From: Octopus vulgaris
Taxonomy: Eukaryota
Length of the DNA stretch: 64,000 nucleotides
Assembly: GCA_951406725.2 (NCBI GenBank)
Contig: OX597819.1
Location: 14,012,001 to 14,076,000 of the forward strand
Reading direction: 5' to 3'
Shown here piece after piece: positions 15,309 through 44,870 of the stretch. The notes beneath the pieces are model-generated. The model ran no database searches. It worked only from the letters and a program-made list of their open reading frames with translations, and was not told the DNA's origin. A program made the position numbers and the translations under genes. Position 1 is the first letter of the stretch. Each line of letters begins with the position of its first letter.

Positions 15309-15311
<3 letters not shown>

Positions 15312-15512
15312 AGAGTTTACAAAAAAACACAAAAGACGAAGACAGGTGGTGTACAAAACAAACAGATGTATTAGTATAACGCTCAGGAATAGAAAAAGTC
15401 TTTTACGTTTTGAGCCTACGCTCTTCTTCGGAAAGGGACACAGAAAAAACAAGGAGAGAAAAAATGTGTGTAGTGGCTAACGATCTATCATGGCGACTGA
15501 CATGATAGATCA
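15309..15512 (-). mobile_element. (TA)n-embedded short element with decayed hammerhead-like motif, copy 1
   Basis: Homologous to 28309-28520 and 44671-44870; minus strand CTTT-CCGAAGA-A-GAGCGTAGGCTC-AAAAC-GTA-AAAG at about 15400-15435. Confidence 0.65.
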
Positions 15513-16110
15513 TTATATATATATATATAACCCATGCCTGCGCAGAAAGTAGATGTTAAAGGATAATGATGATGATATGTATGCACACACACACACATCC
15601 ACACACACCCACCCACACACACGTATACACGGAACCAACTTCCACCAACTTTCCATTTACCAAATTCATTCACAAGACATTGGTTGGCTGCGGGACTATA
15701 ATGAGGGATGCTCATTGGTTATAAAGTCAACTTGTTAACTCCACAGCCACACTCACACGTGGGCATTTAGATCTATTTTATGTAATGTGGCAGTAGAGTG
15801 TAATTTGAGGCAGAATTGGCTGCTAATTTTAACAGGTCAAATGACACGTTAACCTTTTGGCATTCAGATTATTCACAAATCCTTCAGTGTTCAGATTATT
15901 CTGTCAAATGTAAAGCTTATTTATTTACAATCTTTTGAATTTTTTCTCTGCATTTTCTTGTAGCCTTGAAATTTCAAAGATCTGATAGTTTATGCTTTAG
16001 GTTGACATAGGGTAGGTGTGTGAAGCCAGATCTGGTCAGTTTGGACATAAAACAGGGGCAGCTATGACTGGTCTTAAATGCTATGGGGTTCAAGATGCAC
16101 TCATTAGTGG

Positions 16111-16143
<33 letters not shown>

Positions 16144-16145
<2 letters not shown>

Positions 16146-16546
16146 TGCAGGAGTGGCTGTGTGGTAAGTAGCTTGCTAATCAACCACATGGTTCCGGGTT
16201 CAGTCCCACTGCATGGCATCTTGGGCAAGTGTCTTCTGCTATAGCTCCGGGCCGACTAATGCCTTGTGATTGGATTTGGTAGATGGAAACTGAAAGAAGC
16301 CTGTCATATATGTGTATATATGTATGTATGTGTGTGTGTTTGTGTGTCTGTGTTTGTCCCTCTAGCATTGCTTGACAACCGATGCTGGTGTGTTTATGTC
16401 CCCGTCACTTAGCGGTTCGGCAAAAGAGACTGATAGAATAAGTACTGGGCTCACAAAGAATAAGTCCCGGGGTCGATTTGCTCGACTAAAGGCGGTGCTC
16501 CAGCATGGCCGCAGTCAAATGACTGAAACAAGTAAAAGAGTAAAGA

Positions 16547-16548
<2 letters not shown>
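16144..16548 (+). mobile_element. SINE family A, full length
   Basis: Consensus match, flanked by (TA)n. Confidence 0.92.
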
Positions 16549-16591
<43 letters not shown>

Positions 16592-16934
16592 GTTTGGTTG
16601 TCACAAATGGTGGGGATTGAAAAGGAAATAGGGACCAGTGCAATTTAGGCTGCTTTCCGATTTATTTTCTGTTTGTTGTTTATCTATTTGTTATTGAATT
16701 TCATTTATTTATTTATTTATTTATGTATTTTGCACCTGTTGTTAATTTGCAGTTCACTGATAGGAAAGAAATGGTGGGTGAATGAGAAACAGGAAGTGAA
16801 GAACTTCCTGGTCTTATCTGGTATAGTGGGGAAGAGAGGTCATGTAGGCCAAAAATATAAGGATTTAACTGCAGATATGCTCTCTATCTTTCTCTCTCTC
16901 TCTCTTTCTCCGATTATGATGATGATGATATCTA

Positions 16935-17001
<67 letters not shown>

Positions 17002-17373
17002 TTTATTTAAAGCAGCAGAAAATTCAACAAGCCATTCATAAAGCATATTACTCTACCACTGGTATTTGAGTACTCTTTTTTTCCACCTTGTTTCACATTT
17101 ATGTGTTTACTCCAACTGAAATGTATGTATATATTAAAAAGCTTTATTCATGCACACACACACATGATTAATCATCTATTTTTGTGGTGAATTTCATATA
17201 GTGCCAAGGTAAGAAAATACTAGTGGTCTATACAGAAAACCTGGGGCTAAAATTCAAACTGAAACTAGTTGAGGAAAACTTCCTTTTTAAGATGTTAAAA
17301 TATAAAAACAATCTCATATGACCAAAAGTTTTTGTGTTGTCAAGCAATCCCCATACTCACATCAAAGGAACGC

Positions 17374-17736
17374 ATGTATGTATGTATGTATGTATATTTA
17401 GAAATGTATGTATGTATGTATGTATGTATACATGTATATTTATAAATGTATGTATGTACACATGTATATGCATATGTGTGTATGTATGTACACATGTATA
17501 TGCATGTGTGTGTATGTATGTGTGTAGATATATGTGTGTGTGTGTGTGCGATGTACGTAAGTATATATATGTAATATGTGTGTATGTATATATATATGTA
17601 TATGCATGTGTGTATATATATATGTATATGCGTGTGTGTGTGTATATATATATGTATATGCATGTGTGTGTGTGTATATATGCATGTGTGTGTGTGTATA
17701 TATGTATATGCATGTGTGTGTATATGTATATGCATG

Positions 17737-17769
<33 letters not shown>

Positions 17770-17981
17770 GAATGTATATGCATGTGTGTATATATATATA
17801 TATATATATGTATATGCATGTATGTGTGTGTATATATGTATATACATGTGTGTGAATATATATATGTATATGCATATGTGTGTATGTATATATATATATA
17901 TACATACACACACACATGCATATATATATATACACATACACACATGCATATACATATATATACACACATGCATATACATAT

Positions 17982-18033
<52 letters not shown>

Positions 18034-18042
18034 GCATGTGTG

Positions 18043-18073
<31 letters not shown>

Positions 18074-18156
18074 GCAATTGTGTGTTTGTGTGTGTATGTA
18101 TATTTATATGTTTATGCATGTGTGTGTATATGTATGTGTGTGTGTATGTATGTATG

Positions 18157-18206
<50 letters not shown>
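17374..18206. repeat. Compound (TA)/(TG)/(TATG)/(TGCA) microsatellite
   Basis: About 830 bp of alternating purine-pyrimidine repeats; accounts for the long YI/HT/CV ORFs. Confidence 0.97.
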
Positions 18207-18208
<2 letters not shown>

Positions 18209-19109
18209 GGCCCATGCACATGCGTACACACACACAACCGCACACACACACATATATCTCGGCACTATGTCAACAGTGCTGCTTATTTTGGGAATCTGTG
18301 CTGAACCCGCCCCCCCCTCTTCCCCTCCCCTCCACAACCACTGGACCACCAAAAGAACAACAACACTTCGTTGTTGTCACAGAAACATTGTAGAATTGTT
18401 CTTTGGAAATTTGTTTGTTATTATATTTGTCTTTTTTGTTTTTTTTTTTGTGTGTGTGGTAGGATGTTGTTGGTATTTCCCTGAAACAATGCCGTTACTG
18501 TTCTTGGCTCAGTCGCGCCGTCATCACCCCCACCACCCCCTCCCCGCCGCCCCGCCCCGCCGCCCCTCCCCTAATTAATAAAAAGCTCATTTGACAGGTT
18601 AAGTATATCAAAAACCATTTCATTTCACCCATCCTGTTCGCCTGTTGCTGCCGCTGGCCACCTCTCATCACCAAAATTCATTTCCTTCATCCGGTTCTAG
18701 TTTGGAGTAAATGCTGTCATCGTCAGCCTTATTTATCATCGCCATCGTCACCATCATCGTTCGCATCATCATCATTATCGTCGTTATCATCGTTGTTGTT
18801 GTCATCGTCGTCGTCCCAGCAAGGAAACCTGTATGTGGTCGTTGCATCTGCTAGAAATAGCTATCATATCTTCTTCAAAACCACATCCTACCGTCGAGTT
18901 TTGAACATCTGGTCTACAGACGAGGCCTTACAGGCGGAATGACGAAGCTAGGAAAAGAATTGTAGAAGGTTGACGTTCTCGAGTAGCAGAGTTTGGCAGA
19001 AAAATGGTTCGTGCGGGGAATGGCGTGGGCGGTGGTGATGGTGGTGGTGGTGGTGGTGGTGGTCGTCGTCGTCGTCTTTGTTGGCGGCGGCAGTAGTGGT
19101 GGTGTGTAA

Positions 19110-19370
19110 CTCTGTTTGGGTAACCAGATGAAGAGAAACGTGAGGGCTGAGTAGATGCGAGTGGAGATGGTGTGAGACTGCGTAATTCAGAGGAACGAAG
19201 TCCGTTGGAAGTTCGATGACGATCGGAAGACTCCCTGACACATTTTCAGGGACTTCCATAACAGTTGGGAGCAAGTTTTCCTTGAACCAGGGACCGAGTC
19301 TGTAATTCTTACAATAATGGAGAATGTCTCCAGTCATAACACTCAAATGTTCCAGATGATGACGTTATAT
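19110..19370 (-). mobile_element. Decayed CR1-like LINE fragment downstream of RT
   Basis: Minus strand SNGLRSSELRSLTPSPLASTQPSRFSS resembles the YxGxCSSELxxLxP..TR.S motif of CR1-group ORF2 C-termini. Confidence 0.45.
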
Positions 19371-19920
19371 ACTAGGGGATAGGATTAAGTTAAGCCGACC
19401 CCCTTGCGGGCCAGAAGTAAGATGGCATCTGTGGGCCAAAGGAAACAGCATGTCTAGACTCTAATATTTGTGTAGAATACAAGACACTGCAGGCTGAGAG
19501 ACTCTTTGGAAACGGTTCTAAAAGCAGCACAAGTTATTTTGGGTGAATGATATTTGGATAACATAGACATTTAGTTGACACGCTTTTCTGAGAATTTTTC
19601 AGTAAAACATTTTTTAAACTAGTATACTCATAGTAGCAACGGAAGTTCTTTTATACAAAAAAACCCAAACTATTATGATTTCAGGATGTATAATAGGAAT
19701 AGACCTCAATAGTTGACTTGTATTTCATTTTATCAATGTCAGAAGGATGGGAGACAATGTCGAACACGACCAGATTTGAGCAGAAGAGCACACATGACTA
19801 TGGCGTATCGCAGGCATTTTGTCCAACGCTCCAGCTATTCCGTTGTCAACCATTATAGAAAATTCGTCGAGTCCCAGACCATAGGAATGAGTTATATAGT
19901 TGCTCAGCAATATAAATATA

Positions 19921-20120
19921 TTCTTTTGTTCTTTTACTTGTTTCGGTCATTTGACTGCGGCTATGCTGGAGCATCGCCTTTAGTCGAACAAATCGACCCC
20001 AAGACCTCTTCTTTCTAAGCCTAGTACTTATTCTATCGGCCTCTTTTGCCGAATCGCTAAATTTCGGGGACGTAAACAACCAACATCAGTTGTCAAACGA
20101 TAGTGGGGGGACAAACACAG

Positions 20121-20161
<41 letters not shown>

Positions 20162-20332
20162 CACACACACGACGGGTTTCTTTCAGTTTCCGTCTACCAA
20201 ATCCACTCACAAGGCTTTGGTCGGCTCGAGGCTATAGTAGAAGACACTTGCTCAAGGTGCCACGCAGTGGGACTGAACTCGGAGCCATGTGGTTGGGAAG
20301 CAAGCTTCTTACTACACAGCCACTTCTGCGCG

Positions 20333-20334
<2 letters not shown>
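19921..20334 (-). mobile_element. SINE family A
   Basis: Consensus match. Confidence 0.9.
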
Positions 20335-20380
<46 letters not shown>

Positions 20381-21153
20381 AACGCTGGTCACAGTGCACT
20401 TCCTCTTTTTTCTTTTAGCATCCGAATGACGCCACCTCGTGGCTAGGTGAGAAGGCCAACATTCCCCCTGATCGGAAGGCTATTCCACCACAGGGTTACC
20501 CATATGCAGATGAGTGAAATTAAGTGTTTTTGCTCAAGAACACAATGTGCTGCCTAGTCCGAGAATCGAACCTATGATCTTAGTGCTCGTGAGAGCAATA
20601 CTCTAACCACTGGGCCACATGCTCTCATACATACATACGTGTGTGTGTGTGTGTGTTACGGTTGTGTGTTTTCTTCCACTCTTTTTTGACCAAGCTCAAA
20701 AGAACCGCAACAGTTAAAAGGCAAAGACATTATATGGAGTTGTGGTGATCATTCTTGCCAGAAGGGCATTAGAGGCGAAATTTAAATGAGAAAATTTTAC
20801 AGAAAAGATTTTTGTTTGTTTGTTTGTTGTTCTTTGCTTTGTTGTGTCCAGGGCAAATCAATGCCTTGGCAACCGCCACCGACACTTGCGATGTTAATCT
20901 GATGTCGCTAAACTATCGTTGATCGACAATTACAGGAAAGACATAAAGCAAAATGGAGATTATTCTTGAGAGGTCGATTGTTCAGGAGAGGAGATGACCT
21001 TGAACATAGTGACTGCTGATGGAGTTTGGAGTTAGAGAGATAACTGAGTGAGGAGTCCCTGAGTGGGGTCCGGGAATGTCATGAGATTAACCAACTCCAA
21101 GGTAAACCAGAATAGTCTACCCTTACATAATACTCATCAATCCAGTTTATACA

Positions 21154-21556
21154 TCTTTATATATAAAAGTAAGGTTGTGTGCTGTCTGTCTCCTATGATT
21201 TAGATTCCTAACTACTCCCACATTTTGCGGTGCAGTGTAACCAAAACCGGGTATCTTATAGTCGTGATTCATATCGAGCCCTTCTCGGTATTAGCGCGCG
21301 TCTACGATGAGTCTACGATTTTAAAAATAATTTACCATAATTTTTTTCCATTTTAATGCATTTTATTCGCTATTATATAAGGGAAGTAACTCTCTAAAAA
21401 TGTCTACGATGAGTCAACGATTTTTAAAAAAATTTACCATCATTTTTTCCCCATTTTTAATGCATTTTTTTTGCTATTTTTTGGCTATAACTCTCTAAAA
21501 ATGCTTATATAGTTATTTCCCTTACAAACCCGAGCAACGCCGGGCGATACTGCTAG
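21154..21556 (+). mobile_element. Non-autonomous Helitron
   Basis: A|TC..CCCGAGCAACGCCGGG..CTAG|T. Confidence 0.9.
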
Positions 21557-22135
21557 TCTTCAATATAATAAATATGGCCGTAAAAAAAAAAAAAAACTAG
21601 AAATTAACACCACTTTTTTGTTTTTGTTTCATAACGCTGTCCACATTTGTTTATAATCTGTATTTCTTTATATTCTAAAGATTTAGTTTAACTGATACAA
21701 TTCCAAAGGGATTTGAAGGGCTGAAGAGAGTATAAAGTTGTTTTTTTTTATTCTTTGTTGAAAGAATTTAATATGACAGTTAAGTCTGTAAATGTCTGCA
21801 GTGAAGTGCTAGAGATTGCCAGCCAAGGTATTTCGACACCATCAAAACACAGACGCCATACAAGATTATAGACATATGTGTTTGATGTTATTTTAACTGC
21901 AGATATATCAGCTGGTTTCATTTCTGTGTGTGTGTGTGTGTGTGTGCGTGTGTGTGTGTGTGCTTGGTCTCATAACACAATCATATACAAACTGCACCAA
22001 TATGCAGGATATTAAAAACAGCTGCACTTATAAAGAGGAAGAAAAATAAACAGAAAAGAAAAGAAAAGCAAAACAGCCTGCATCAACTCAACGAATTAAG
22101 TACTTCAGAGTAGCACCAAAAATACGCAAACATAA

Positions 22136-22175
<40 letters not shown>

Positions 22176-22777
22176 GTGTGTGTATATATATACACAGTGA
22201 TACATGTGGATAGCTACATTAATACATGGAGCCATATTTACAGCCCTACATCAACATACGACAGCAACACGTGGTTGTACGGAAGTGGAAGTTATTCTTT
22301 GACATGCTAGATATAACAACCTGCTACATCTCAACAGATTCTTTAGGGCTTTCGAATCGCAGAAAAGCACCACCACCCACCGTATTTCACACCCTAAATT
22401 TTAGGACTATATTGCCTACGACACAAAATACAGATGAATATCTCTTAGGCCCTTGATAGTTTTTGAAGGGCCTCTGCTCAGCTAGTTTCCTGGTGTAGAC
22501 GAGAGATGAATCTTCATCTGGGTGGTAAGATGTGAGTCACGTTTCCATTATTCTCAGAAATGAGGCTAATAGGATTGTGTGTACAACCCAAATGCACAAA
22601 AGAGTAGGTGTAGAGAAGTTGAACCTAGGACCTCTAAGTTAGTTGTCCAGTACTTCATTCTTCAACTTCTTCTCGTCGACTTGTGTTGGGGACGATGACA
22701 GATTGATTGATTGATTGATTCTAGTTTCAGCTCACGAGCTGTGGCCATGCTGGGGCACCGCCATTAAATGTAGAATC

Positions 22778-22830
22778 TACCTCCGACGGGACTCGAACCC
22801 GCAATCCCCGGCTTAGGAGGCCGGTGCCTT
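22778..22830 (-). pseudogene. 5'-truncated tRNA-Arg(CCT) copy fused to a retro-tail
   Basis: Minus strand AAGGCACCGGCCTCCTAAGCCGGGGATTGCGGGTTCGAGTCCCGTCGGAGGTA: anticodon stem CCGGC/GCCGG and T-arm intact, 5' acceptor strand absent. Confidence 0.85.
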
Positions 22831-23530
22831 CACACATTTTGTTAATTATAGGATTTGTTTGATGTTGTCCCATCGTAATATCATTGGAGGCTTTTAATAA
22901 ATGTTTGGATTTCCTGCAGTCGTTCACTCATAGATATCCAGATTGAAATCATCCACATAATTCTTAATCTTTTGTTGCTGTTGTTTAGCCCCAGGTCAGC
23001 CCTGATGGAGCAGAGCTATGATTAAAGTTATTCCAACCGTGGTAACCCTTTCTTTTTAGGAGATATCTAGACTCACTGTGTCCTTCGTTTATTGAAGACG
23101 GTATGATATGATTTGAATGAGATTTGGCTGCTATTCCTAGCATCATCGTTGGAACTGTTTATCCTCCTCTGACTAACTTTTTTTTTTTCAGTTTAAAACA
23201 TGCATTCATATTTTAAATGAAACCTCGTCTAGGGATCTTTTAATGCAATATTTCTATGTGTCAAGTAAACGAGTAAACTGTATAAAAGTATAATTTAAGG
23301 GTTTGCGTTGAGAAATAGGAAAGGTTTAAGGTTTTGGGAGAACCCCATCAGTGACTGAGTTGGTTGTGTATTGAGTTGTGTATCAAAATGTTGATATTGT
23401 TGTTGAGTTTCAGATCAACATTGATTAAGAAGACTTGTGATCAAACATTTTCGACCCGAATTGACCGTATTCGGGTTCTAAAGACAGTAGGGTGTGATTT
23501 CAGAAAAATTCGACTGTTTTTTCTGGCAAG

Positions 23531-23915
23531 TGGAAGCACTCCGTCGGTTACGACGATGAGGGTTCCGGTTGATCCGAATCAACGGAACAGCCTGCTCGTG
23601 AAATTAACGTGTAAGTGGCTGAGCACTCCACAGACACGTGTACCCTTAACGTAGTTCTCGGGGATATTCAGCGTGACAGAGAGAGTGACAAGGCCGGCCC
23701 TTTGAAATACAGGTACAACAGAAACAGGAAGTAAGAGTGAGAGAAAGTTGTGGTGAAAGAGTACAGCAGGGATCACCACCATCCCCTGCCGGAGCCTTGT
23801 GGAGCTTTAGGTGTTTTTCGCTCAATAAACACTCACAACGCCCGTTCTGGGAATCGAAACCGCGATCCTATGACCGCGAGTCCGCTGTCCTAACCACTAG
23901 GCCATTGCGCCTCCA
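23531..23915 (-). mobile_element. SINE family C (tRNA-Arg-like head), tail type 1
   Basis: TGGAGGCGCAATGGCCTAGTGGTTAG..GGTTTCGATTCCC..tail CGTAACCGACGGAGTGCTTCCA; TSD TTTTCTGGCAAG. Confidence 0.92.
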
Positions 23916-24446
23916 CTTTTTCTGGCAAGTAGAGTGAGCGATTGGAGCGTCTTTCGTTAGGAGAGGGCTGTTAATTATATTGGTTTCAAATTTTGGCATA
24001 AGGCCAGTAAGTTCAAGGATCTATCTAAGTCGATTAGATAGACCCCAGTCATCAACTGGTCCTTGTTTTATTGACTCCGAAAGGATGAAAAGCAAAGTTG
24101 ACTTCGGCGAAGTTTGAATTCAGAACGTAAAGAGATGTATCTATTTTGTATGGCCCTGCAGCGATTCTGCTATTTATCGAATATATTGCTAGCATTGATA
24201 ACAGATTATTTGTAATATTGGCCCCCAACATATTTAAGAAGCAACAGGTGATAAATTCGACAGCCAAACTTCTTATAACTCGTAATAATGAAAAGCAAAG
24301 CCACCTTCAGTGGACTAGGAACACAGTTTTCTAACATTGACCCATGGTCAGATATGGAGGATAGGGTACAGTAGATGAAAATGAACTCAGAACCTATTTT
24401 ATGAAATCCAAGATTTAATGGAGGTGGCGAAGGTTTGCATTTAAGG

Positions 24447-24958
24447 CAGGGGTGGGGGAACGTTTTAGTGCCGCGGGCAAAAATTTCCTAAGAAAAAGGT
24501 CCACGGGCGGATCACAAGTTCTAACTCTTATATCTGTGTAAATCTTGCATATATCTACGTATAATTCGATATACATAAATAAAGATAAGTTTAACACATT
24601 AAACTAATGCGTAACATCTTCATTAACGCCGCCACTGAATTTAGGACGTTGTTTATTACCTATGAGGTATTCTATATCATCCATCTAGAATGTAGTTGGG
24701 TCTCAAGGGCGTGGTACAAACCTAGCAATATGTGTTTCATAGTGAAAACAAAATTTCCATTCAAATGACAATTGTCGGACGATTTTCTGTTGAAGTCCGA
24801 CCATTTTAAGTCGTAGTGGAAACGCGACCTATGTCGCAAATAGGCGTACGAATATTGTATAAATTTTGATCGAAAAGTTTACTATATTTTGTATATATGA
24901 GTATATCTTCATGTGGCTGCAATAAAACGGGCTCGCGGGGGTGAGGTCCCTATCACTG
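24447..24958. mobile_element. hAT-type MITE
   Basis: Imperfect TIRs CAGGGGTGGGG / CCCTATCACTG and 8-bp TSD ATTTAAGG / ATTTAAGT. Confidence 0.75.
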
Positions 24959-24962
24959 ATTT

Positions 24963-25275
24963 AAGTAAGAAAACAGCACAGCTCCCATGACTTCAGGAAA
25001 CATTTTTTCACGCTGAGAGTTGCTGAAGCATGGAACAAACTGCCGGCATCAGTTGTTAGTTGTCGGAGCACTGCATCCTTCAAAACTTCCATGCTTCCTG
25101 AGATTCGCCAACACTACACCTGATTTTCTCCCCTCCTTACACACACAAGCATGTATCTGACTCATACATTGTTCGCTTTCCAGACATTTCTGCATTACTG
25201 CATGTACTTTATATGCACTTTCTGACAAGTTGTGGTGCACCTGAGCACTGTATACAACAATTTCATTATTATTAT
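24963..25275 (+). mobile_element. CR1-type LINE 3' end
   Basis: VRKQHSSHDFRKHFFTLRVAEAWNKLPASVVSCRSTASFKTSM..stop, then 3' UTR and (ATT)n tail. Confidence 0.85.
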
Positions 25276-25526
25276 AAATATGTTTTCTTATCGTTTTTGT
25301 ATCTGGCTAGCATAATGACTTTCCTTAGACCCACCAAATTGTTTTTCTTCTCTTATGTGGAATGCCGCTCTATAAACTGTATTGTCATTGGATACAACTA
25401 AATTTTTTATACTGTATTTATTTGATTTAATTATTCGTGGAAAGCTGGTAGATCATGACAGACTGCAGAAAATCTCTTATATAAAAGGACAAAAGCAACA
25501 CTAACAAGAAAAGAATGGAAGAAGGA

Positions 25527-25865
25527 CAGATAACGGTTTCTGTTTTGGGGTCCTTGACAGATAACGGTTTCTGTTTTAGGGTCCTTGACAGATAACGGTT
25601 TCTGTATTGGGGTCCTTGACAGATAACTGTTTCTGTTTTGGGGTCCTTGACAGATAACGGTTTCTGTTTTGGGGTCCTTGACAGATAACTGTTTCTGTTT
25701 TGAGGTCCTTGACAGATAACTGTTTCTGTTTTGGGGTCCTTGACAGATAACTGTTTCTGTTTTGGGGGTCCTTGACAGATAACTGTTTCTGTTTTGGGGT
25801 CCTTGACAGATAACTGTTTCTGTTTTGGGGTCCTTGACAGATAACTGTTTCTGTTTTGGGGTCCT
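25527..25865. repeat. 31-bp minisatellite, about 11 copies
   Basis: Unit TTGACAGATAACTGTTTCTGTTTTGGGGTCC repeated with no spacers. Confidence 0.95.
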
Positions 25866-26329
25866 TTGTGTGGTCCCCATGTATTGGCAGGACTTTGAAC
25901 TATGACCTCCCTTGGTTGTTGAACTATTATGAATTGGTCTCGCTTTGAGGCCCTCTTCCGCTTCATAACAAGCCCAGTATGTTTCGCTCAATGATGAATA
26001 AACCCCGAGAAAGTAGACTAGTTTTAATTTATGCCAATTAATTCACAATTGAATCAGTGGGTGTAGTGTTAAATGGATTTTCTCTAAAAAGAATCGGCTT
26101 ATATTTGACAACCGAATTCATATAAACTACGCCACCATTTCCCCTATTAAGTTTTCTTTTAGTACAACTCATTTGTCCTGCAGGATTGTTACGTGCATCA
26201 CACACAGCGGTGTTGGCTATCATGCGTCGAGATGAAAGCTTCACAATTGCCTTTCCAATGGTGTTAGTTGTTGCGTTATACTATGTTGCAGCGGTGGACA
26301 CTTCAGCTGTTATTTCAGGAAGGCTCCTA

Positions 26330-26494
26330 GGCGCAGGAGTGGCTGTGTGGTAAGTAGCTTGCTTACCAGCCACATGGTTCCGGGTTCAGTCCCACTGCGT
26401 GGCACCTTGGGCAAATGTCTTCTACTATAGTCTCGGGCCGACCAAAGCCTTGTGAGTGGATTTGGTAGACGGAAACTGAAAGAAGCCCGTCGTA

Positions 26495-26546
<52 letters not shown>

Positions 26547-27527: not shown

Positions 27528-27600
<73 letters not shown>

Positions 27601-27603
<3 letters not shown>

Positions 27604-27971: not shown

Positions 27972-27984
27972 TATATATATATAT

Positions 27985-28276
27985 ATTAGAAGGTTTGGAG
28001 ATGATGTACAGGTATTATATATTAGAAGAAATAAGGTACTCAGAAATCTGGATGGTTTTATATTTACAGATTTTTATTAATGTCACATGTTTTTATAAAT
28101 CATATATTAGCGCTTGCGTCCTCTCTAGTAGAATCTGGAGGTTCAAATCAAACATTCAAATCTGGAGATTCTACTAGAGTAGATGCAAGCGCTAATATAT
28201 GAGTTATAAAAACATGTGACATATTAATAAAAATCTGTAAATATTAAACCATCCAGATTTCTGGGTACCTTACTTC

Positions 28277-28283
<7 letters not shown>
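27985..28283. mobile_element. (TA)n-embedded fold-back element
   Basis: About 120-bp inverted arms TATTAGAAGAAATAAGGTAC..CTCTAGTAGAATCT / AGATTCTACTAGAG..GTACCTTACTTCTTCTAATA around a roughly 30-nt loop. Confidence 0.85.
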
Positions 28284-28308
<25 letters not shown>

Positions 28309-28517
28309 ACGGGAAGCTTTATGAAAATAGACAAAAGACGAAGGCAGGTGGAATACAAACAAACAATTGTATTAGTATGGCGCTCAGGAATATAAATAAA
28401 ACAAGTCTTTTACGTTTCGAGCCTAGGCTCTTCAACAGAAAGATACACAGAAAAGAAACACAGAAAGAAACAAGGAGAGAAAAAAAAATGCGTGCAGAGG
28501 CTAGCGAATCAACATGG

Positions 28518-28520
<3 letters not shown>
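28309..28520 (-). mobile_element. (TA)n-embedded short element with hammerhead-like motif, copy 2
   Basis: Minus strand TCTTT-CTGTTGA-A-GAGC.CTAG.GCTC-GAAAC-GTA-AAAGA at 28406-28443. Confidence 0.7.
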
Positions 28521-28560
<40 letters not shown>

Positions 28561-33380: not shown

Positions 33381-33388
33381 GATCATTA

Positions 33389-33425
<37 letters not shown>

Positions 33426-33831: not shown

Positions 33832-33834
<3 letters not shown>
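33426..33834 (+). mobile_element. SINE family A inserted in (TTA)n
   Basis: Consensus match. Confidence 0.9.
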
Positions 33835-33864
<30 letters not shown>

Positions 33865-34428: not shown

Positions 34429-34453
34429 TATTGTTGTTGTTGTTGTTATTATT

Positions 34454-34895
34454 AAGGCAGCGAGCTGGCCGAATCGTTAGCACACCGGAGGCGAAAAGCT
34501 TAGCGGGATTTCGTCTGCCGTTACGTTCTGAGTTCAAATTAGGCGGGGAGCTGGCAGAAACGATAGCACGCCGGGCGAAATGCTTAGCGGTATTTCGTCT
34601 GCCGCTACGTTCTGAGTTCAAATTCCGCCGAGGTCGACTTTGCCTTTCATCCTTTCAGGGTCGATTAAATAAGTACCAGCTACGCACTGGGGTCGATATA
34701 ATCGACTTAATCCGTTTGTCTGCCCTTGTTTGTCCTCTCTTTGTTTAGCCCCTTATGGGTAGTAAAGAAATAGGTATTTCGTCTGCCGCTACGTTCTGAG
34801 TTCAAATTCCGCCGAGGCGACTTTGCCTTTTATCCTTTCGACTTAACCCCCCCCCCCACCCCAGTATTGCTACCCTTGTGGCGAAATTTGAAACT
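34454..34895 (+). mobile_element. SINE family B multimer
   Basis: Head fragment, full monomer, then a further body starting at GGTATTTCGTCTG and ending in the alternative tail. Confidence 0.85.
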
Positions 34896-35194
34896 ATTAT
34901 TATTGTTGTTGTTGGTATTATTATATAAAATGTAATTAGTGATTAAATATAATTTGTAATTAGCTGATGACCACCTAAAATACAACTGGTCACAAATGGT
35001 TTCTTCTGAACAACATCCATCGTATCTCTACGTTACTTGAAGAATTATTGTCTGTCAACAATCAGAAATCTTGGTTATTGTGAATACAATAGAATTTATA
35101 CCAAAATGTCGTTATGATCACGTTTTTGTCAATGTTTTTTATTGCAATATTTAAATATAGATGTGTTCAAATTCCCCCGAGTGATATATATATA

Positions 35195-35518
35195 TTACTC
35201 TTTTACTTGTTTCAGTCATTTGACTGCGGCCATGCTGTAGCAACTCGACCCCTTATTCTTTGTAAGCCCAGTACTTATTCTATCGATAAACACGCCAGCA
35301 TCGGTTGTCAAGCACAGGCACACAAACACACACGCACATATATATACATATATACGACGGGCTTCTTTCAGTTTCCGTCTACCAAATCCACTCACAAGGC
35401 TTTGGTCGGCCCGAGGCTATAGTAGAAGACACTTGCCCAAGGTGCCACGCAGTGGGACTGAACCCGAAACCATGTGGTTGGTAAAGCAAGCTACTTACCA
35501 CACAGCCACTCCTGCACC
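35195..35518 (-). mobile_element. SINE family A with several internal deletions
   Basis: Consensus match with gaps. Confidence 0.85.
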
Positions 35519-35720
35519 TATATAATATATATATATGTGTGTGTGTGTGACAGAGAGGGGAGGTGGAGGAGGTTCTCGCATATGACATGAACCAGGGCCA
35601 GATTTAAGGATAAACTAAACAAACAGCAGCTTAGGGCCTCACAATCCCGTGGGGCATCGGATTAATTAAATGACAAATATTTCTTATTGAACGGCATAAC
35701 GCGCAAACTATTTGGAAAAT

Positions 35721-36129
35721 GAGTGACTGTGTGGTAAGTAGCTTGCTTACAAACCACATGGTACCGGGTTCAGTCCCACTGCGTGGCATCTTGGGCAAGT
35801 GTCTTCTGCTATAACCTCGGGCCGACCAAAGCCTTGTGAGTGGATTTGATAGACGGAAACTGAAAGAAGTCCGTCATATATATATATATATATTTATACG
35901 TGTGTATATATATATATATGTATGTGTGTCTGTGTTTGTCCCCCCCACCCCAACATTGCTTGACAACCGATGCTGGTGTGTTTACGTCCCCGTTACTTAG
36001 CAGTTCGGCAAAAAGAGACCGATAGAATAAGCACTAGGCTAACAAAGTCCTGGGGTCGATTTGCTCGACTAAAGGCGGTGCTCCAGCATGGCCACAGCCA
36101 AATGACTGAAACAAGTAGAGTAAAAGAGT
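35721..36129 (+). mobile_element. SINE family A
   Basis: Consensus match. Confidence 0.9.
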
Positions 36130-36157
36130 ATCCATTGCATTGTAGTTGTTTATATAC

Positions 36158-36222
<65 letters not shown>

Positions 36223-36611
36223 CGTATATATAGGTGTATTAGTGGTAATAAAACATAGGGCCAATTTAATTCATGGGATAATAATTGTCTGCGGTGATAT
36301 TTTTAAAATTTCACGTTTAAAAAAAAAGAAGCATGATGCATTTTAGAAAATTTCAGAACTTTAGTCACAGAAAAAGTCCCAGTTTTGGTTATGAAAAACA
36401 AACTCGCAAGGAAAATGTTCTATTTTATTTAAATACCTTAAACAATAATTCAACAAGACTTTGTGGTTTCTGTAAAAATATTATAAACGCATTGTTATCC
36501 GGTGTCGTATAATATGTCTTCGATGAGACAAAAACAAACGTTTAATTTGACTTTTACTGGTTTTCCTTTTCCTGCGACTGTTGGTATTTGCTAAAACACT
36601 AAAGATATACT

Positions 36612-37019
36612 TACTTTTTACTTTTACTTGTTTCAGTCATTTGACTGCGGCCATGCTGGAGCACCGCCTTTAGTCGAGCAACTCGACCCCGGGACTTATT
36701 CTTTTGTTAGCTCAGTACTTATTCTATCGGTCTCTTTTGCCGAACCGCTAAGTAACGGGGACGTAAACACGCCAGCATCGGTTGTCAAGCAATGCTAGGG
36801 GGACAGACACAGACACACAAACACACACACGCATATATATATATACATATACATATATACGACAGGCTTCTTTCAGTTTCCGTCTACTAAATCCACTCAC
36901 AAGGCTTTGGTCGGCCCGAGGCTATAGTAGAAGACACTTGTCCAAGGTGCCACGCAGTGGGACTGAACCCGGAACCATGTGGTTAGTAAACAAGCTACTT
37001 ACCACACAGCCACTCCTGC
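36612..37019 (-). mobile_element. SINE family A
   Basis: Consensus match. Confidence 0.9.
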
Positions 37020-37219
37020 ATCGATATTATTTTCTCATATTTCTATTAAGTTTCCCTTTCATCCTACTTGAAGCTGTTTTACAATCCCATTTTCAGCCTC
37101 CTTAATAATAACTACCATTAATGTCGCCACTGATTCTGTTCTCACCCTGTATAAACTTGAAACTGTCTTGTCTCTTGTAGAAAAACAAAATCTTTATTTT
37201 CTTCATAATTACTTAATAA

Positions 37220-37612
37220 CGAGCAGTATCGCCCGGCTTTGCTCGGGTTTGTTTCGACCCTTTATAATTGGAATTTTTGAAAAGTAAAAATGTTGCATTA
37301 TGTAGCTTGTTATTCTCTTTAAGTGAGCATTTTTCTGGTTGAAATACACCGAAAAATGGCGACACATCAGTAAAAAATCGTAAAAAATAGGGATTTTCAT
37401 AGAAAAAAAGCACCTTTTTGATGTAAATAATTTTTGGTGTTAACATGGTCCGATTTGAATTTTTTTTTCTATGGAAGGAAGAGCAAGCCTTCTTCTATCA
37501 TACTCTCAATTTTGGTCAACTTGCGCCGCAGGGTCTTGGAGGAGATGGTGTTAGTTGAAGGCTACCAAACCTGCCATACACAGACAACTTCAGCTTTATA
37601 TATAGAGAGAGA
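37220..37612 (-). mobile_element. Non-autonomous Helitron, related subfamily
   Basis: Minus strand TC..TATATATAAAGCTGAAGTTGT start and CCCGAGCAAAGCCGGGCGATACTGCTCG|T end match the 2212 family; the interior differs. Confidence 0.8.
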
Positions 37613-38338
37613 TCTATGACGACATATACCGGCTTGGAGGATTTTAAAGGCAGGTCAGTTGCAAAAAAAAATAATAATAATTAGAAGCTACGTCACTAAA
37701 ACAATACACAACTTAGTCACGTAGATGAATTCATTCTCTTAGAGGATTAGATCGGATTTAATTAAATTGTTAATCCTACAGTTTTAAATATAATCAATTT
37801 CATTCAAAAACTTATTTAAAATTAAAAGATTTTAGTAATGGTGTCAAGGGAGGTAACTTTTATAGAGTTAACTCCCTTATCGACTACATATTCGAGAGAG
37901 ATGAAGTAATTGAGAAGGAAGGAAATAAGTTCTGTTAATAAAAGTTATCAGATGAGTCACAATTTTTTTAAAATTTCTACCAAGTTTATTGAATAGATTT
38001 CCATCTCCACGTGGTTATTATCCTACTTTGGTTAATATTTACTTTTTGTGCAAAAACCATTTGATGCAGGTATTTCTCTTCTAATCGAACAAACTTTTGA
38101 CACCTGAGTAGCAGATCGAACCCACGGTGATCATTATTTACAAAATTCGATTTGATATTCATAAATGACCAAACTATAAATGATAATTATAGGTTTATAA
38201 ACACTGGCCCTTTTTACACATGAACGGTGATGATGATGGGGGGTGGAGAGAAATATTGGTTTCTCTGCAAATCGTAAAAAGTTTGTTTTGAATCGAAAAG
38301 GCAAAAATGATCGTATTTTTTTATTAATATTAAAATCC

Positions 38339-38392
<54 letters not shown>

Positions 38393-38531
38393 CTGTGTGT
38401 GTGTGTGTGTGTGAGGGAGAGAGGGAGTGTTGAAACCTCATCTTAAGAATCAATGTACTTTTCAAAAATACTTCACATGTGATATTTTTACGAAAGGTAC
38501 CAAATTTCTGGAATTGTTTTGTATAATAATA

Positions 38532-38570
<39 letters not shown>

Positions 38571-38739
38571 CTTTCAGTCATGTGTAGGTTGCATTATTGG
38601 CATTTTTAACGAGCCTGGAAGAATGGAAGGCGAAACTGACCTCGGCGGGATTCGAACTTAGAATGTGAAAGTCTGTAACAAAATACAGCAAGACGTTTTG
38701 CCTAAGTCATGCTAGCTGTTTCATGAGTGGTATTGGTAG

Positions 38740-38910
38740 GATGACCGAGCATATTTACTATATTTTTACCCGCCAAAACTCTAACCGCCAACCATAGAAG
38801 AATGATGCAGCTATCACCAAACCGTGACATTTTCACGTCATGCTTCCTGCTCATTCGTTTTCTCACTGAGCAAGCGACAATGTCAGAGCCGTCTGACCTC
38901 ATCGTGCACC
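38740..38910. promoter_or_regulatory. Candidate promoter
   Basis: Unique CpG-retaining sequence with E2F-like CCCGCCAAAA (38769-38778), CACGTCA and ETS-like CTTCCTG, at the edge of a CpG-poor domain; motif evidence only. Confidence 0.35.
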
Positions 38911-41664
38911 CTTGTTTTTATTCATTTTGTTTTGTTTTGGGTTTTTTTCTATGGTGGTTAACCTTGACAAACTGAACATATCTTCCAATTCTCCTACATT
39001 CAGGGTGTAAGGGGAAATGACAAACTCAGAGAAGCAACAGCGAAGTGAATCGTCTGCTGCCAATGAATAAATTAACAATCTGCTGAGATGTGTTGATCTC
39101 TCTGTTTCCCATAGTTTGTACGCCCGTACATGTGTTTTTCAGGATATTTATACGTATTCATGGCAGGGAGGGATATTCCCGAGGATTGATGTTATGAGGG
39201 GAAAAGGAAGATTTTGTAAAGGGGTGGATTAGTGGAGGGCAGACATGGTGATATTCATGACAACAGGAAGGGAGAATATTTCTTCAGTGACGAGATTTAA
39301 GGAGTTTCGGAATAGACGGTATCCAATTAGCTAGAAATACCAGCCAGACTTTTCTCAGTTCACACCTTACAATCTTTGAAATCGTATAAGCACATTGCAT
39401 TCAATAAGTTTTACATTAACATATGATATTAAATATGTTACGTTTGGGTGGTAGAAAGCGGGATGATAATAGCAAGAACACATTTGGTTTCATGAGCATA
39501 GGGAGTCAGGTCTGACCTAGGGTTAAATAATAACATAGGGTTTGTTTTAATTAAAATTATAATTTTTTTAATATTGCATTGAGAATCAGTCTAGCCGTGT
39601 GCTTACTGAAGTTTGACTTTGCCTGTCATCAATCTAGGCTCAATAAAATAGTATCAATCAAATATTGGAATCAATTCAATGAACTTAGTGGAAGTAGTTG
39701 ATAAAAAATCGATTGGTTTGGGAGAAAAATGATCTGTGATGGTTGTGAAGCATTTGAAGCAGAAAGAATTGAACACTCCATCTTGAAATGATGACTTTGT
39801 AAACGAGACTTGACTTCAATCCTAGCCATTTCTCTGCCTGAAAATGTTTGTAACATCTGCAAGTTGGATCTGTTTGTTCAAAGTCCTGACTTGATTGTCA
39901 TATGAGTTCAGTTATTGTGAAGAGATGGCCTTCCTCTGTAAAGAAGTGGAAATCACCACACATACACAAACACACTTTCTCATCAAAATTTGTGAAACAT
40001 TTTAGAGATTATTTTCTTAATGAATTTATTTTATTTTTTATTCAAATTCTATTTTATTCTTATCATTTTATTCAAATTCTATTTTATATACAGTTTTCTT
40101 TCAAACTTTTATTTCATTATCAAAAGATTTTTTTTTTTACCTCACTAGTGGAAATGAAAATCTGACAAAAATATTTTATCTCTTTCAGTTTAATTCAAAC
40201 CCCATTTCATATTCAAGGAATTTTACTTCATCATACTGAGGAATATCTTACCTTTTTGGAATACTATTCAAGGAAATTAAAAGTTATCCACTAGTTTTGC
40301 AGGTAAACCAGCAATTCCATATATATACATATATATAATAATGTGTGTTTTGACAAATGTCTGCTTCACTTACCACTTTTGTTCTCTGTGTATCTCGGAC
40401 CCTATGATGAATGTTTCATGAAGAAATGAAAATAGGTTATCTTAGAACCTTGATGTTTTGTTTTAGCCTACATCTTTTTTTGTAGGGTCCCTAACGACAG
40501 TGGGTAGGTGAGTGGGAAAAGGAAGAAGGAACCATGGTTCATTGAATGGGATCACCAGAACAGGTTTTTTAAGTTTCTTTTTTTAATCTGAGAACAGAGA
40601 CCTAATCCCAAAACCTGCAAGAAAGTTGATTCTGCTGAAAGGACCCAAGGCCTGGGTGGTGAGGCTTAAATCTTTGACCCTAAGAACAAGAATCAGTTCT
40701 GCTCATCTGACAGGTTTCTAGTTCAGTTTCCATTTCAGTAGTTAGAACGTTGGGCTCACAATTATGAGGTAGTGAGTTCGATTCTCAGACCAGACTGTGT
40801 GTTGTGTTCTTGAGCAAGATATTTTATTTCATGTTGCTCCAAATCACTAACCTGTAGAAATAAGTCACAACATCACAGGTGCCAAGCTGTATCAGCCTCT
40901 GCCTTTCCCTTGGATAACATCAGTGGTGTGGAGAGGAGAGGCTGGTGTGCATGGGCAAACTGCTGATCTTCCACAACCTTGCCAAGACTTGTGCTTTTGT
41001 GGGGGGGAACTTGCTTGGTGCAATCCCATGGTCATTCATGATTGAAGGGAGTCTTTACTTGGTTGACACAAAGCTATAATGGAAGATTCTTTCTCAAGGT
41101 ACCAGGCAGAGGAATTAAATTCAGAACTCCAGGATTTTGAAGTGAACTTTTTAACCAGCACACCTCCATTACAGTAAAATGCCTCAGTTTCTTACTTTCT
41201 CACCTGTTACATTTGTATCTAGGTACAAACATAAATTAACACATTAACTATCACAGCTGTTACTTAGTGGAAGTAGTTGATAAAAAATCGATTGGTTTGA
41301 GAGAAAAATTATCTGTGATGGTTGTGAAGCATTTGAAGCAGAAAGAATTGAACACTCCATCTTGAAATAATGACTTTGTAAACAAAACTTGACTTTAATC
41401 CTAGCCATTTCTCTGCCTCAAAATGTTTGTGCAAGGAATACGTTGATTATATCAACCACAGTCTTCAGTTGGTACTTATGTATCAATCCTGCGAGGATGA
41501 CAGGCAACCCTGGCGTAATTTGAACTCAGAATGTTAAGAAGAATGAAACACCACAAAGCATTTTGCCTGGCAGGCTAATGTTTCTGCCCATTCTCTGCCT
41601 TAAGTACCCGCTTAATTATGGTAAACTTATATCAGTAAATTCTTCATTATTTTGAAAAATTAAC

Positions 41665-41983
41665 TCCGTGCCGGTGGCATGTAAAAAGCACCATTCATGC
41701 GTGATCGTTACCAGCATCACCTTTCTAGCACTTGTGCAGGTGGCACATGAAAAAAACATTCGAGTGAGGTCGTTGCTAGTGCAGGCGGCACGTAAAAAAC
41801 ACCATTTGAGTGTGGCCGGTGTGGCCACTGTTGGAGTGGTTGGCATTAGGAAGGGCATCCAGCTGTAGAAACTCTGCCATATCAGATTGGAGCCTGGTGC
41901 AGCCATCTGATTTGCCAGTCCTCAGTCAAATCGTCCAACACATGCTAGCATGGAAAGCAGACGTTAAACAATGATGATGATGA
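41665..41983 (+). mobile_element. (GAT)n-tailed retro-repeat, same family as 463-810
   Basis: GGTGGCAYGTAAAAA units, GGAAGGGCATCCAGCTGTAGAAAC, (GAT)n tail. Confidence 0.75.
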
Positions 41984-42811
41984 TAACTGGAACAAAGGTA
42001 GAATATTTGAACAGAAATTTTGGTAATGAAAGGTTCCAATCATATACACCTGCTTGGTCCATTGTTGACCACTGGACTCCAGTATAAGGTACAATGCATT
42101 TCTTGGTTCAAGCAGCCTGACCCAAAATAGCATACCCTTTTAATTTATGTTAGAATGGTTAACAATAGGTAAAGGTGTGCTTTTGTGTCTTTGTTTTAAT
42201 CTCCTCTTTGCTATTTTAGGTCCTTCTCCCTTCATGCTGTTACTAACGACCCAACTGTGAAGTAGGACTGAAACCTGTCTGCATTGTTTTAGCCATCTAG
42301 ATTTTTTTTTTAAACTGACAAGGGATCCTTTACATGGTCACATGACTTCCAAGAGAAGGTAGTCAGATAGATAGATATGTGTGTGTGCTAAAGGTGAACA
42401 ATTTGAAACTTTGTAGTTAGTGTCCTTGTAATAGTTTAATAAGTACGTACTCTAGTATATATTAGTGTACTAGAGTATGTACTCTAGTACTCTATAAGTA
42501 TTGAGTAATCCTTCGGTTTAATGTTAAAATGTTTTTATATAAAACTTGACTTAGAAAACATTTATGTGTGTGTGTGTGTGTGTGTGTACATATATCAACG
42601 TCATTTCATATCCATTTTCTATGCTCGCTTGGGTTGGACACCGACAGGTGCTGGCAACCCGGAGAGCTGCATCAGGCTCCACTTGTCTGTTTTGGCATGG
42701 TTTCTATGGCTGGGTGCCTTTCATGTGGCACCAGCATGGGAGCTTTTTATGTGGCGCCAGGACAGGTGCTTTTTATGTGGGGCCAGCATGGGTGCTTTAT
42801 ATGTGTATATA

Positions 42812-42876
<65 letters not shown>

Positions 42877-43593
42877 GCACACACACATATATATATATAT
42901 ACTTTCTGAAATGAGGCAGATTTGAATTGTATTTCACAGAAATAAAACAAAATAATTATTGTAAAACGGGGAGGAGGAAATTGTGAAGCATTTTACTTTC
43001 TTTTTTTTTATTATTATTTTTTGGGGTGAAGATGGACTTACTTGAACACACACGCAGAGTGCATTCATGCATGGCTTGTGTGTGACTTAGAAACCACCTT
43101 TTTTTTTTGTTTACCTTCCTTTAAGCAAGCACCCATTGGTGTTTAGCCGACACAGAGCTTGCAATAGGAGGAACCCTTTCTGATAAGTTTTTGAAATCAT
43201 TGTAAGTAATAAACGCAGCCACCCACCCCTCTAACTAACGATGATGTGAGTTGGTAAGGAAGTTAGTCATCTTTTATGTGAGTCTCGTTAAAGTCTTTGA
43301 AACTTGCAGTAATTAATAACCCTATTCAGGATCATCTCTGACCTATATCAAGCCTGCCAGATCATGTCTAAAAATAAATTAAACCCTTCCCACCTTTATT
43401 TTTACCTTCTGGTTTTCTTCTGCTCTTTGCTTTATATATTTTGTCATGTATTTTATTTTTCTTATATATTTCTTTTTCAATTTATTTTCTCAAATTTTAA
43501 CTTCTGTCGCCATTCTGTTCGCATTCAGTGGTTTTGTTCATATGATATACAGTCAACAAATATTACATATACATACATATACACATGCATACA

Positions 43594-43627
<34 letters not shown>

Positions 43628-43900
43628 GTGTTTTTACACCTTTTACCATAAAGAGAATTTCTTCTCCACAGTAACTGCATTGAATTTACCTTTAGGCATT
43701 GAAATATGTCACAAACATGTCTTAACTAATTTAAAGTTCACTTATGCCAGAACTCTGCTTGGTGCTGATACCAACAAATATATATATATATATTATATTA
43801 AATTAGAGACAAAACCACTATTATGCAAATCAAACAAAGAAAGACTTAAGCCAATACATAAAATAATTTATATAAATTTAGAAATTTAACAATTATAAAT

Positions 43901-43961
43901 AACCACTACGATCGTTTCATGTCTTATTTCAGCACATCTTTGAGACATTCTTCAGGTGGTT
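43901..43961 (-). ncRNA. Minimal type I hammerhead ribozyme
   Basis: AACCAC-CTGAAGA-ATGTCT(loop)AGACAT-GAAAC-GATC-GTA-GTGGTT: 6-bp stem I, 6-bp stem II, palindromic short stem III, full core. Confidence 0.85.
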
Positions 43962-44018
43962 TCAAAACCTTCTTGGCGAGTTTTAAACTATGTTTTAAAC
44001 TCGCCAAGAAGGTTTTGA

Positions 44019-44062
44019 AACCACCTGAAGAATGTCTCAAAGATGAAACGATCGTAGTGGTT
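44019..44062 (+). ncRNA. Mirror-copy hammerhead with a 17-nt deletion in stem II
   Basis: AACCAC-CTGAAGA-ATGTCTCAAAGAT-GAAAC-GATC-GTA-GTGGTT; core and stems I and III intact, stem II damaged. Confidence 0.6.
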
Positions 44063-44256
44063 ATTTATAATTGTTAAATTTCTAAATTTATATAAATTAT
44101 TTTATGTATTGGCTTAAGTCTTTCTTTGTTTGATTTGCATAATAGTGGTTTTGTCTCTAATTTAATATAATATAATATAATATTTTACTATAAAATTGGA
44201 TTCAATCCTAAATCTGATTTTTCCCTGTAAATTTGGATTTATTCCCTAATATTTAT

Positions 44257-44289
<33 letters not shown>

Positions 44290-44311
<22 letters not shown>

Positions 44312-44655
44312 AAGAATAAAGAGAAAATGGAGAAGATTATTTATTAATTATAAAACATGACAAAATCTCTGACAGCTGTTTCAATACAGAAATCTTTAGA
44401 TAATTAATTTATAAAATTAAGATCATTATAAGATGAAGCTCTTCAGAGGTAGTAAAGATATACTGATCAGAAATACTTGTTGAGATAATGGCTATAAAAC
44501 CATTATATAGAAAAAGAGCTGGTTATAGAAGGCCTCGATCTAACACAGGGGGTTTATATGGTGACCTTATAGTTGAACTCTCTATAGATTGATAACTAAC
44601 CAGTATTTTCATTGGAATTATTATCCCTTAATGAGGTTTATTACCTTTACTTGAT
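44290..44655 (-). mobile_element. (TA)n-embedded element with degenerate hammerhead
   Basis: Minus strand CTGAAGA (44446-44440), a long AT-rich hairpin, then GAAAC-AGCT-GTC (44382-44371); stem I only about 2 bp. Confidence 0.5.
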
Positions 44656-44670
44656 TATATATATATATAT

Positions 44671-44867
44671 AACATGATTGATTGCTAGCCACTAAACCTT
44701 TTTTATTTTCTCTCTCTGCTTATTTTTGTGTTCCTTTCTGTAGAAGAGCGTAGGCTTGAAACGTAAAAGACTTTTTCACTTCCTGAACATTAAACTAATA
44801 CATCTATTTGTTGTTTGTGTAAACAAACCCGTCTTTGTCTTTTGTTTTGTTTTGTTGTAAATTCCAA

Positions 44868-44870
<3 letters not shown>
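44671..44870 (+). mobile_element. (TA)n-embedded short element with hammerhead-like motif, copy 3
   Basis: CTTT-CTGTAGA-A-GAGC.GTAG.GCTT-GAAAC-GTA-AAAG at 44734-44769; homologous to 15309 and 28309. Confidence 0.68.

Follow-up and report, generated by a model that had tools for sequence, protein, structure and literature searches.

A dispersed 200-bp octopus repeat in (TA)n tracts carries a variant minimal hammerhead motif with U at core position 6

A 64,000-nucleotide stretch of the Octopus vulgaris genome (GenBank assembly GCA_951406725.2, contig OX597819.1, positions 14,012,001 to 14,076,000 of the forward strand; henceforth the window) contains three dispersed copies of a ~200-bp element, each lodged between (TA)n tracts and each carrying a minimal hammerhead motif. 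The core of this motif reads CUGUNGA across the family, with U at position 6 in place of the A of the minimal hammerhead ribozymes (min-HHRs) described in metazoan Penelope-like elements (PLEs), which lack helix III and loop 3 and work as dimers (Cervera and de la Pena 2014; PMC4209133). The explanation that we favor, and consider probable, is that the element is a ~190–200-bp non-coding, non-autonomous PLE derivative, likely derived from the terminal repeat (pseudo-long terminal repeat, pLTR) of such an element, inserted in (TA)n and bearing a PLE-type min-HHR that, with its U6, is predicted to have weak cleavage activity or none. What is new here is the family-wide U6; the dimer architecture was already known.

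The motif reads CUUU CCGAAGA A GAGC GUAG GCUC AAAA CGUA AAAG in copy 1, CUUU CUGUUGA A GAGC CUAG GCUC GAAA CGUA AAAG in copy 2 and CUUU CUGUAGA A GAGC GUAG GCUU GAAA CGUA AAAG in copy 3, so that the shared hammerhead-like motif recognized in the initial annotation of this DNA is present as described in all three. It keeps the usual order of a type I hammerhead. Stem I lies in register with C3 and H17 and comprises 4, 5 and 4 bp in copies 1, 2 and 3, respectively; an extra base, A in every copy, stands between positions 9 and 10.1; and stem II spans 4 bp in each, with G10.1-C11.1 closure followed by GAAA. Departures from the latter are seen at CpG sites, where C11.1 is replaced by U in copy 3, giving a G-U pair, and position 12 is A in copy 1. 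Loop III is lacking, and a palindromic 15.2-16.2 dinucleotide is joined to a NUH site (ACGU-A in 3/3 copies). We agree with the earlier view that such a stem III could close only between two molecules, with the addition that two tandem motifs might serve as well.

The motif is real and not a product of chance, because a descriptor that recovers it had no match in 60 dinucleotide-shuffled windows. This descriptor specifies a type I hammerhead that lacks loop III and has a stem I of at least 3 bp, CUGANGA, one extra base, a stem II of 4–8 bp with G as its first base, GAAA, a dinucleotide that pairs and UH, with up to two core mismatches allowed. Applied to the window, it returned copies 2 and 3 (one core mismatch each), copy 1 (two mismatches) and an unrelated motif at 49962 (no mismatch); in its strict form (0 mismatches) it passes none of the three copies. 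Rfam models at the gathering score gave 0 matches in the whole window, and at E up to 10 no hammerhead family appeared among the 18 matches to copy 2 and the 7 to copy 3, which represent TA-tract or low-score noise, GcvB included. The suggestion that standard descriptors would miss the motif thus holds for Rfam, but a min-HHR descriptor was published in 2014, and it is U6 that causes the strict miss. Other placements of the core were rejected. A split-core or permuted reading would have to employ the sole CUGA of each copy, which sits downstream of the cut by ~17 nt (by 23 nt in copy 2) and follows a C unable to pair with A1.1; it also loses to the CUUU in place, which provides a 4–5-bp stem I in register. 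The other registers of CUGUAGAAG lack either the C3-G8 pair or stem II.

Two further motifs of this general type lie elsewhere in the window. At 49959-49994 (+) is an unrelated minimal hammerhead with the canonical core CUGAAGA, an extra A, a 5-bp stem II, GAAA, U-G, UA and a 3-bp stem I; it is followed by an A/T-rich tail, has no relative in the window and can serve as an A6 control occurring naturally in this genome. A third min-HHR-like motif, at ~63811-63849 (+), displays CUGAUGA, an extra C, an imperfect stem II and GAAAC-GUC followed, like the motif of the 200-bp family, by AAAGAC; its T-rich tail ends at an (AT)n tract at 63938. It gives a weak profile match to the family (E 0.001) and is possibly a decayed sister family with A6.

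Apart from position 6, the architecture of the octopus motif, as read from the letters, agrees at every feature with the published min-HHR consensus, CUGANGAH...GAAAN-palindrome-NUH, and with the emergent features given for this class, namely the extra nucleotide between 9 and 10.1, G10.1-C11.1 and the palindromic 15.2-16.2 (PMC4209133). The shared traits include: 1) the type I order with a short stem I; 2) the extra base, G10.1-C11.1 and GAAA; 3) the absence of loop III, with the palindromic 15.2-16.2 and NUH; 4) U-rich flanks, mostly solo occurrence and the need, predicted for the octopus motif, for a dimer. The Neptune row of Acropora digitifera in Fig. S3 of that paper, with an extra A, a 4-bp stem II, a tetraloop and ACGU, represents the same build, and by our own count 29 of the 56 rows of that figure have the loop-less ACGU. 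Hence the extra base, the missing loop III, the palindrome and the dimer mechanism, which the initial annotation had taken to be atypical, already belong to the min-HHR definition; its view of a hammerhead-derived, PLE-like motif with an intermolecular stem III stands, and the claim of novelty does not. PLE-linked variants described by Lunse, Weinberg and Breaker (RNA Biol 14:1499), to judge by the title and description in a review (PMC6765202), are likewise small, with a very short palindromic stem III and dimer cleavage. In contrast to the published min-HHRs, the octopus family has U6 throughout, a stem II shorter than in most rows and no linked PLE open reading frame (ORF) found in the window. 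All 56 rows have A6, and the core box of PLE min-HHRs (CUGANGA, or its U3-A8 covariant) is broken in the octopus majority at position 6, the remaining box letters being intact; for this reason we class the motif as a variant, and not a member, of the PLE min-HHRs.

The prevalence of U6 was assessed in contigs of public sequencing runs, the family being present in whole or in part in 20 of the 24 listed runs, from 10 studies. Contigs from four runs (X1, X7, X10 and X13) were aligned to copy 1 at ≥80% identity in one depth-weighted alignment; 25,863, 15,621, 8,229 and 4,413 contigs, respectively, were placed, which shows that the repeat is abundant. Summed contig depth is a measure of neither copy number nor expression, and was not used for comparing the 5' and 3' halves. 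U6 accounts for 96.6%, 94.8%, 97.9% and 99.1% of depth in the same four runs, G12 for 90.2–97.0% and U4 for 96.9–99.6%. The A6 share is at most about 1–5%, an upper bound because the reference copy itself carries A6 and thereby favors A6 contigs. In all four runs, the loose contig end seen most often at position 6 likewise has U6, followed by U7. Thus, the family core is CUGUNGA, which settles the choice between CUGANGA and CUGUNGA left by the initial annotation; the U6 it had noted in two copies is indeed there, but as the norm of the family and not as a defect of those two. The three listed positions at which copy 1 departs by substitution from the contig majority all fall in the core (C4, A6 and A12), within 20 nt (15411-15430), and one is a CpG change. 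Position 7 is variable in the contigs (U 2.7–9.2%, G 2.7–7.5%), as is position 17 (U 1.7–12.4%), just as hammerheads allow, which supports the assigned register.

A core of this form argues against an efficient dimer ribozyme. Even with A6, min-HHR monomers are not cleaved and dimers and trimers cleave weakly (PMC4209133). A natural change at position 6 is likewise found in the hammerhead of phage Bcep176, an A6C form which on assay cleaves slowly in Mg2+ (PMC3088659), and an engineered A6C version of another hammerhead is >10,000-fold slower in Mg2+ than in Mn2+ (PMC7151607). A full mutational scan reports low activity for all mutants of the CUGA motif except the C3-G8 swap (PMC9901934). The octopus repeat differs from the phage case in being A6U and a high-copy animal repeat known here from its sequence. 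No title among the literature matches listed names a natural A6U hammerhead, while supplements and repeat databases may contain the family; in the main text of one octopus repeat annotation (PMC13282606) the words 'hammerhead' and 'ribozyme' are absent.

Folding predictions point the same way. The 42-nt monomer of every copy folds with stem II in place, but stem I is not predicted in the folded full-length monomer (pair probability 0.00–0.02). With energies that leave out the tertiary contacts of the core, the double-hammerhead dimer attains -14.1, -14.9 and -8.9 kcal/mol in copies 1, 2 and 3 versus -19.4, -36.0 and -18.0 kcal/mol for the best dimer, and is the most stable predicted dimer in 0/3 copies; the best dimers pair through the near-palindromic stem-loop II. 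That of copy 2 (28419-28430, minus strand) is a perfect 12-nt palindrome, at which, and not via stem III, two molecules are predicted to pair (the -36.0 kcal/mol dimer).

The boundaries of the element and their setting contribute to the link to PLEs. The initial annotation had placed homologous copies at 15309-15512, 28309-28520 and 44671-44870; their homology is borne out by blastn (pairwise identity 73–79%, E 2e-18 to 4e-39), and two ends are refined to 28519 and 44672. The copies are all solo, with a spacing of 13–16 kb. A profile of the three copies (nhmmer) found no fourth full copy in the window, the sole extra match being weak and partial (63745-63845, E 0.001). The flanking TA tracts were also correctly noted: all six element ends lie ~1 nt or less from a TA tract of at least 10 nt, against a background of 0.84% of window positions within 4 nt of such an edge, which is the target expected of a non-autonomous PLE derivative. 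Hydra-clade PLEs and the Naiad PLEs of cephalopods are listed as inserting preferentially into (TA)n by Craig et al. 2021 (PMC8557442), who also discuss a TA bias of Neptune and Naiad elements. Copy 1 bears at its 5' end a short inverted duplication resembling inverted 5' copies known from PLE insertions (PMC8557442); its outer arm is missing from copies 2 and 3 and is scarcely covered by contigs in any run. The predicted cut falls near the middle of the element: the portion 5' of it measures 109, 110 and 95 nt and the portion 3' of it 95, 102 and 105 nt in copies 1, 2 and 3, and all three copies extend across it. From the start of stem II to the 3' end the copies measure 115, 122 and 125 nt, comparable to the 111–118 nt at which reverse transcription starts in PAc, the Poseidon element of the lizard Anolis (PMC11167929). 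With endonuclease-bearing (EN+) PLEs, such as Neptune, Hydra, Naiad and PAc, the element has in common the (TA)n or AT-rich target, a hammerhead near the 3' end and inverted 5' pieces. It differs from them in that no reverse transcriptase (RT) or GIY-YIG ORF was found in the window, and in that the listed Hydra-clade hammerheads, cephalopod Hydra included, have a longer, looped stem III (PMC8557442); Naiads are reported there to be without canonical hammerheads. A MITE-like (miniature inverted-repeat transposable element) long imperfect inverted repeat at 28023-28281, 85% self-complementary over 186 nt, adjoins the TA tract of copy 2.

Coordinates of the element copies, their hammerhead motifs and their flanking features in the window
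Feature	Position	Strand	Details
Copy 1 of the ~200-bp element	15309..15512	-	differs by substitution from the contig majority at only three listed positions, all in the core
Copy 2 of the ~200-bp element	28309..28519	-	two short T-rich insertions relative to copy 1
Copy 3 of the ~200-bp element	44672..44870	+	
Minimal hammerhead, copy 1	15400..15435	-	C3 15431; extra A 15424; stem II 15423-15412; G12 position 15411 (here A); ACGU 15408-15405; predicted cut 3' of 15404
Minimal hammerhead, copy 2	28406..28443	-	C3 28438; core CUGUUGA; 5-bp stem I; predicted cut 3' of 28411
Minimal hammerhead, copy 3	44734..44769	+	C3 44738; core CUGUAGA (majority form); predicted cut 3' of 44765
(TA)n tract, 3' end of copy 1	15261..15308		5' tract 15514-15529
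(TA)n tract, 3' end of copy 2	28282..28308		5' tract 28520-28556
(TA)n tract, 3' end of copy 3	44871..44907		5' tract 44656-44671
11-bp inverted repeat, 5' end of copy 1	15482..15511		arms 15482-15492 and 15501-15511

These features suggest how a non-autonomous PLE derivative of this kind might spread. A copy would first be transcribed into RNA, probably by read-through; an RT/GIY-YIG protein from a PLE located elsewhere could then bind this RNA and nick the (TA)n target, and reverse transcription would start ~115–125 nt downstream of the start of stem II. The template is likely to be uncut RNA, because an internal cut would lose the 5' half, yet the copies span the site. If an uncut template is needed, a weakened ribozyme would be neutral or even favored in a solo element, while the stems and most of the core would persist, likely as an RNA shape recognized by the PLE protein. 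In PAc, cleavage by the hammerhead requires protein, insertion in vitro proceeds normally for mutants whose hammerhead is dead, and the main template is unprocessed RNA (PMC11167929).

Several observations weigh against this explanation. The letter shares that establish U6 are weakened by their derivation from one depth-weighted alignment of contigs on copy 1 at ≥80% identity, and A6U is not among the mutants tested in the cited passages of the literature. Among the three copies, invariant columns make up 32/38 of the motif versus 95/147 of the flanks (one-sided Fisher P = 0.014, with the caveat that the flanks contain fast-changing T runs), and a long-dead ribozyme need not be conserved. Furthermore, no Pfam match to a GIY-YIG or RT catalytic domain was obtained for the 270 filtered ORFs of at least 55 aa in the whole window, nor did anything reach the curated cut-off, and the family motif had 0 matches in viral, metagenome and prokaryotic contig collections, as expected for an animal repeat. 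With no parent PLE in the window or these collections, the PLE link rests on motif type, target and geometry. Neither the parent PLE ORF nor the tandem copies for which the initial annotation had proposed a search were found in the window, and the organization of an autonomous EN+ PLE, with an RT and GIY-YIG ORF between pLTRs, is lacking, the copies being ~200 bp between TA tracts. The supplement text of PMC8557442, where long sequence runs are abridged, likewise contains none of three 12-letter motifs. One sub-threshold zf-RVT match is located at 10190-10501 (E 0.005), far from the copies; it belongs to a broken coding remnant at 10190-10810 (+), likely the 3' part of a long interspersed nuclear element (LINE).

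The alternative that bears most directly on U6 is that it constitutes a functional natural core variant, i.e. an A6U hammerhead fixed in an abundant animal retroelement and kept by selection on master copies, which would cleave at GUA as a dimer only when licensed by a PLE protein or by an ion other than Mg2+. Copies 2 and 3, though only 73% alike, both have U6, as does the contig majority near copy 1, which implies that U6 is old and stable. The six variable motif columns of the three copies comprise the three minority letters of copy 1, one CpG change in copy 3 and two free positions (N7 and loop II), and in the contigs N7 and H17 vary as a working hammerhead permits. The protein dependence of the lizard hammerhead (PMC11167929) and the good cleavage of A6C in Mn2+ (PMC7151607) supply precedents. 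The contigs do not bear out this pattern at significance, however: with the six CpG positions and the other two minority positions of copy 1 left out, variants of at least 5% occur at 1/22 constrained motif positions versus 2/6 free ones (P = 0.11), 10/44 in the proximal 3' flank (P = 0.058) and 12/130 in all flanks counted (P = 0.41). Hence the motif, which should have been no better conserved than its flanks if the initial annotation were to fail, is better conserved among the three copies but not significantly so in the contigs. Given also the poor dimer cleavage of A6 min-HHRs themselves (PMC4209133), the failure of the double-hammerhead to emerge as the most stable predicted dimer in any copy (on energies without tertiary contacts) and the solo copies 13–16 kb apart, we deem an active U6 core unlikely. 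If true, U6 would represent a built-in brake, by which a solo element is copied whole and cut only late, and the first U6 core found in print, providing a natural test of the purpose of hammerheads in PLEs.

Other origins for the copies appear still less plausible. They might simply be solo pLTRs, or 3' ends left by 5' truncation of an autonomous PLE, and lead no independent life as an element: min-HHRs number thousands per genome, mostly solo and probably derived from truncated PLEs (PMC4209133), and solo pLTRs would likewise give fixed ends. Yet the start points of the three copies agree within 2 nt once the copy 1 duplication is set aside; in X1, the loose letters past the start are rich in A/T and agree poorly (0.41, 50 contigs), revealing no common upstream sequence; and A6 is present in all 56 published representatives, among which 30 species are PLE-linked (PMC4209133). 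We accordingly regard this origin as rather improbable. A slimmer chance attaches to descent, as dispersed monomers, from a tandem array of a non-LTR retrozyme elsewhere in the genome that replicates via circular RNA. Animal non-LTR retrozymes are similarly short, non-coding, low in GC and hammerhead-bearing, are proposed PLE derivatives, and have a unit size range that includes the octopus element and described dispersed monomers (PMC7229834; bioRxiv 10.64898/2026.07.22.740005). However, retrozymes are characterized by tandem units, complete hammerheads and circular RNA, whereas the octopus element occurs as solo copies within (TA)n and has a minimal core with U6: there is no tandem copy in the window, no end-to-start joint occurs among the 13 contig joints listed (TA spacers could hide one), and those tested are described with canonical type I hammerheads and not a minimal damaged core (PMC7229834). 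A short interspersed nuclear element (SINE) transcribed by RNA polymerase III, with a chance likeness to hammerheads, is largely refuted. One-mismatch B-box-like words do occur within the motif, but an A box is absent from both strands of all three copies, each copy has five to seven runs of at least four T on the hammerhead strand, the tRNA scan found no tRNA gene, and the shuffled windows yielded no descriptor match.

The window also holds other dispersed repeat families of 220–280 nt with 5–8 copies each (e.g. 12026-12302, 11861-12098, 34536-34817 and 20108-20329), some with internal TA/TG tracts, and a tandem array at 25525-25866 of 11 copies of a 31-nt unit that are 96% alike.

Hammerheads have been called universal in several PLE clades (PMC8557442), yet they are poor at cleavage in their minimal form (PMC4209133) and were dispensable for insertion in vitro (PMC11167929). 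In this context, the octopus family, which is non-coding and abundant and has spread with U6 in its core, amounts to a natural experiment. If the U6 core is dead, mobility in vivo needs no cleavage, and the motif would be either a leftover or a handle for protein. If it is active, the hammerhead core tolerated in nature would be wider than published, and strict descriptors would undercount such motifs.

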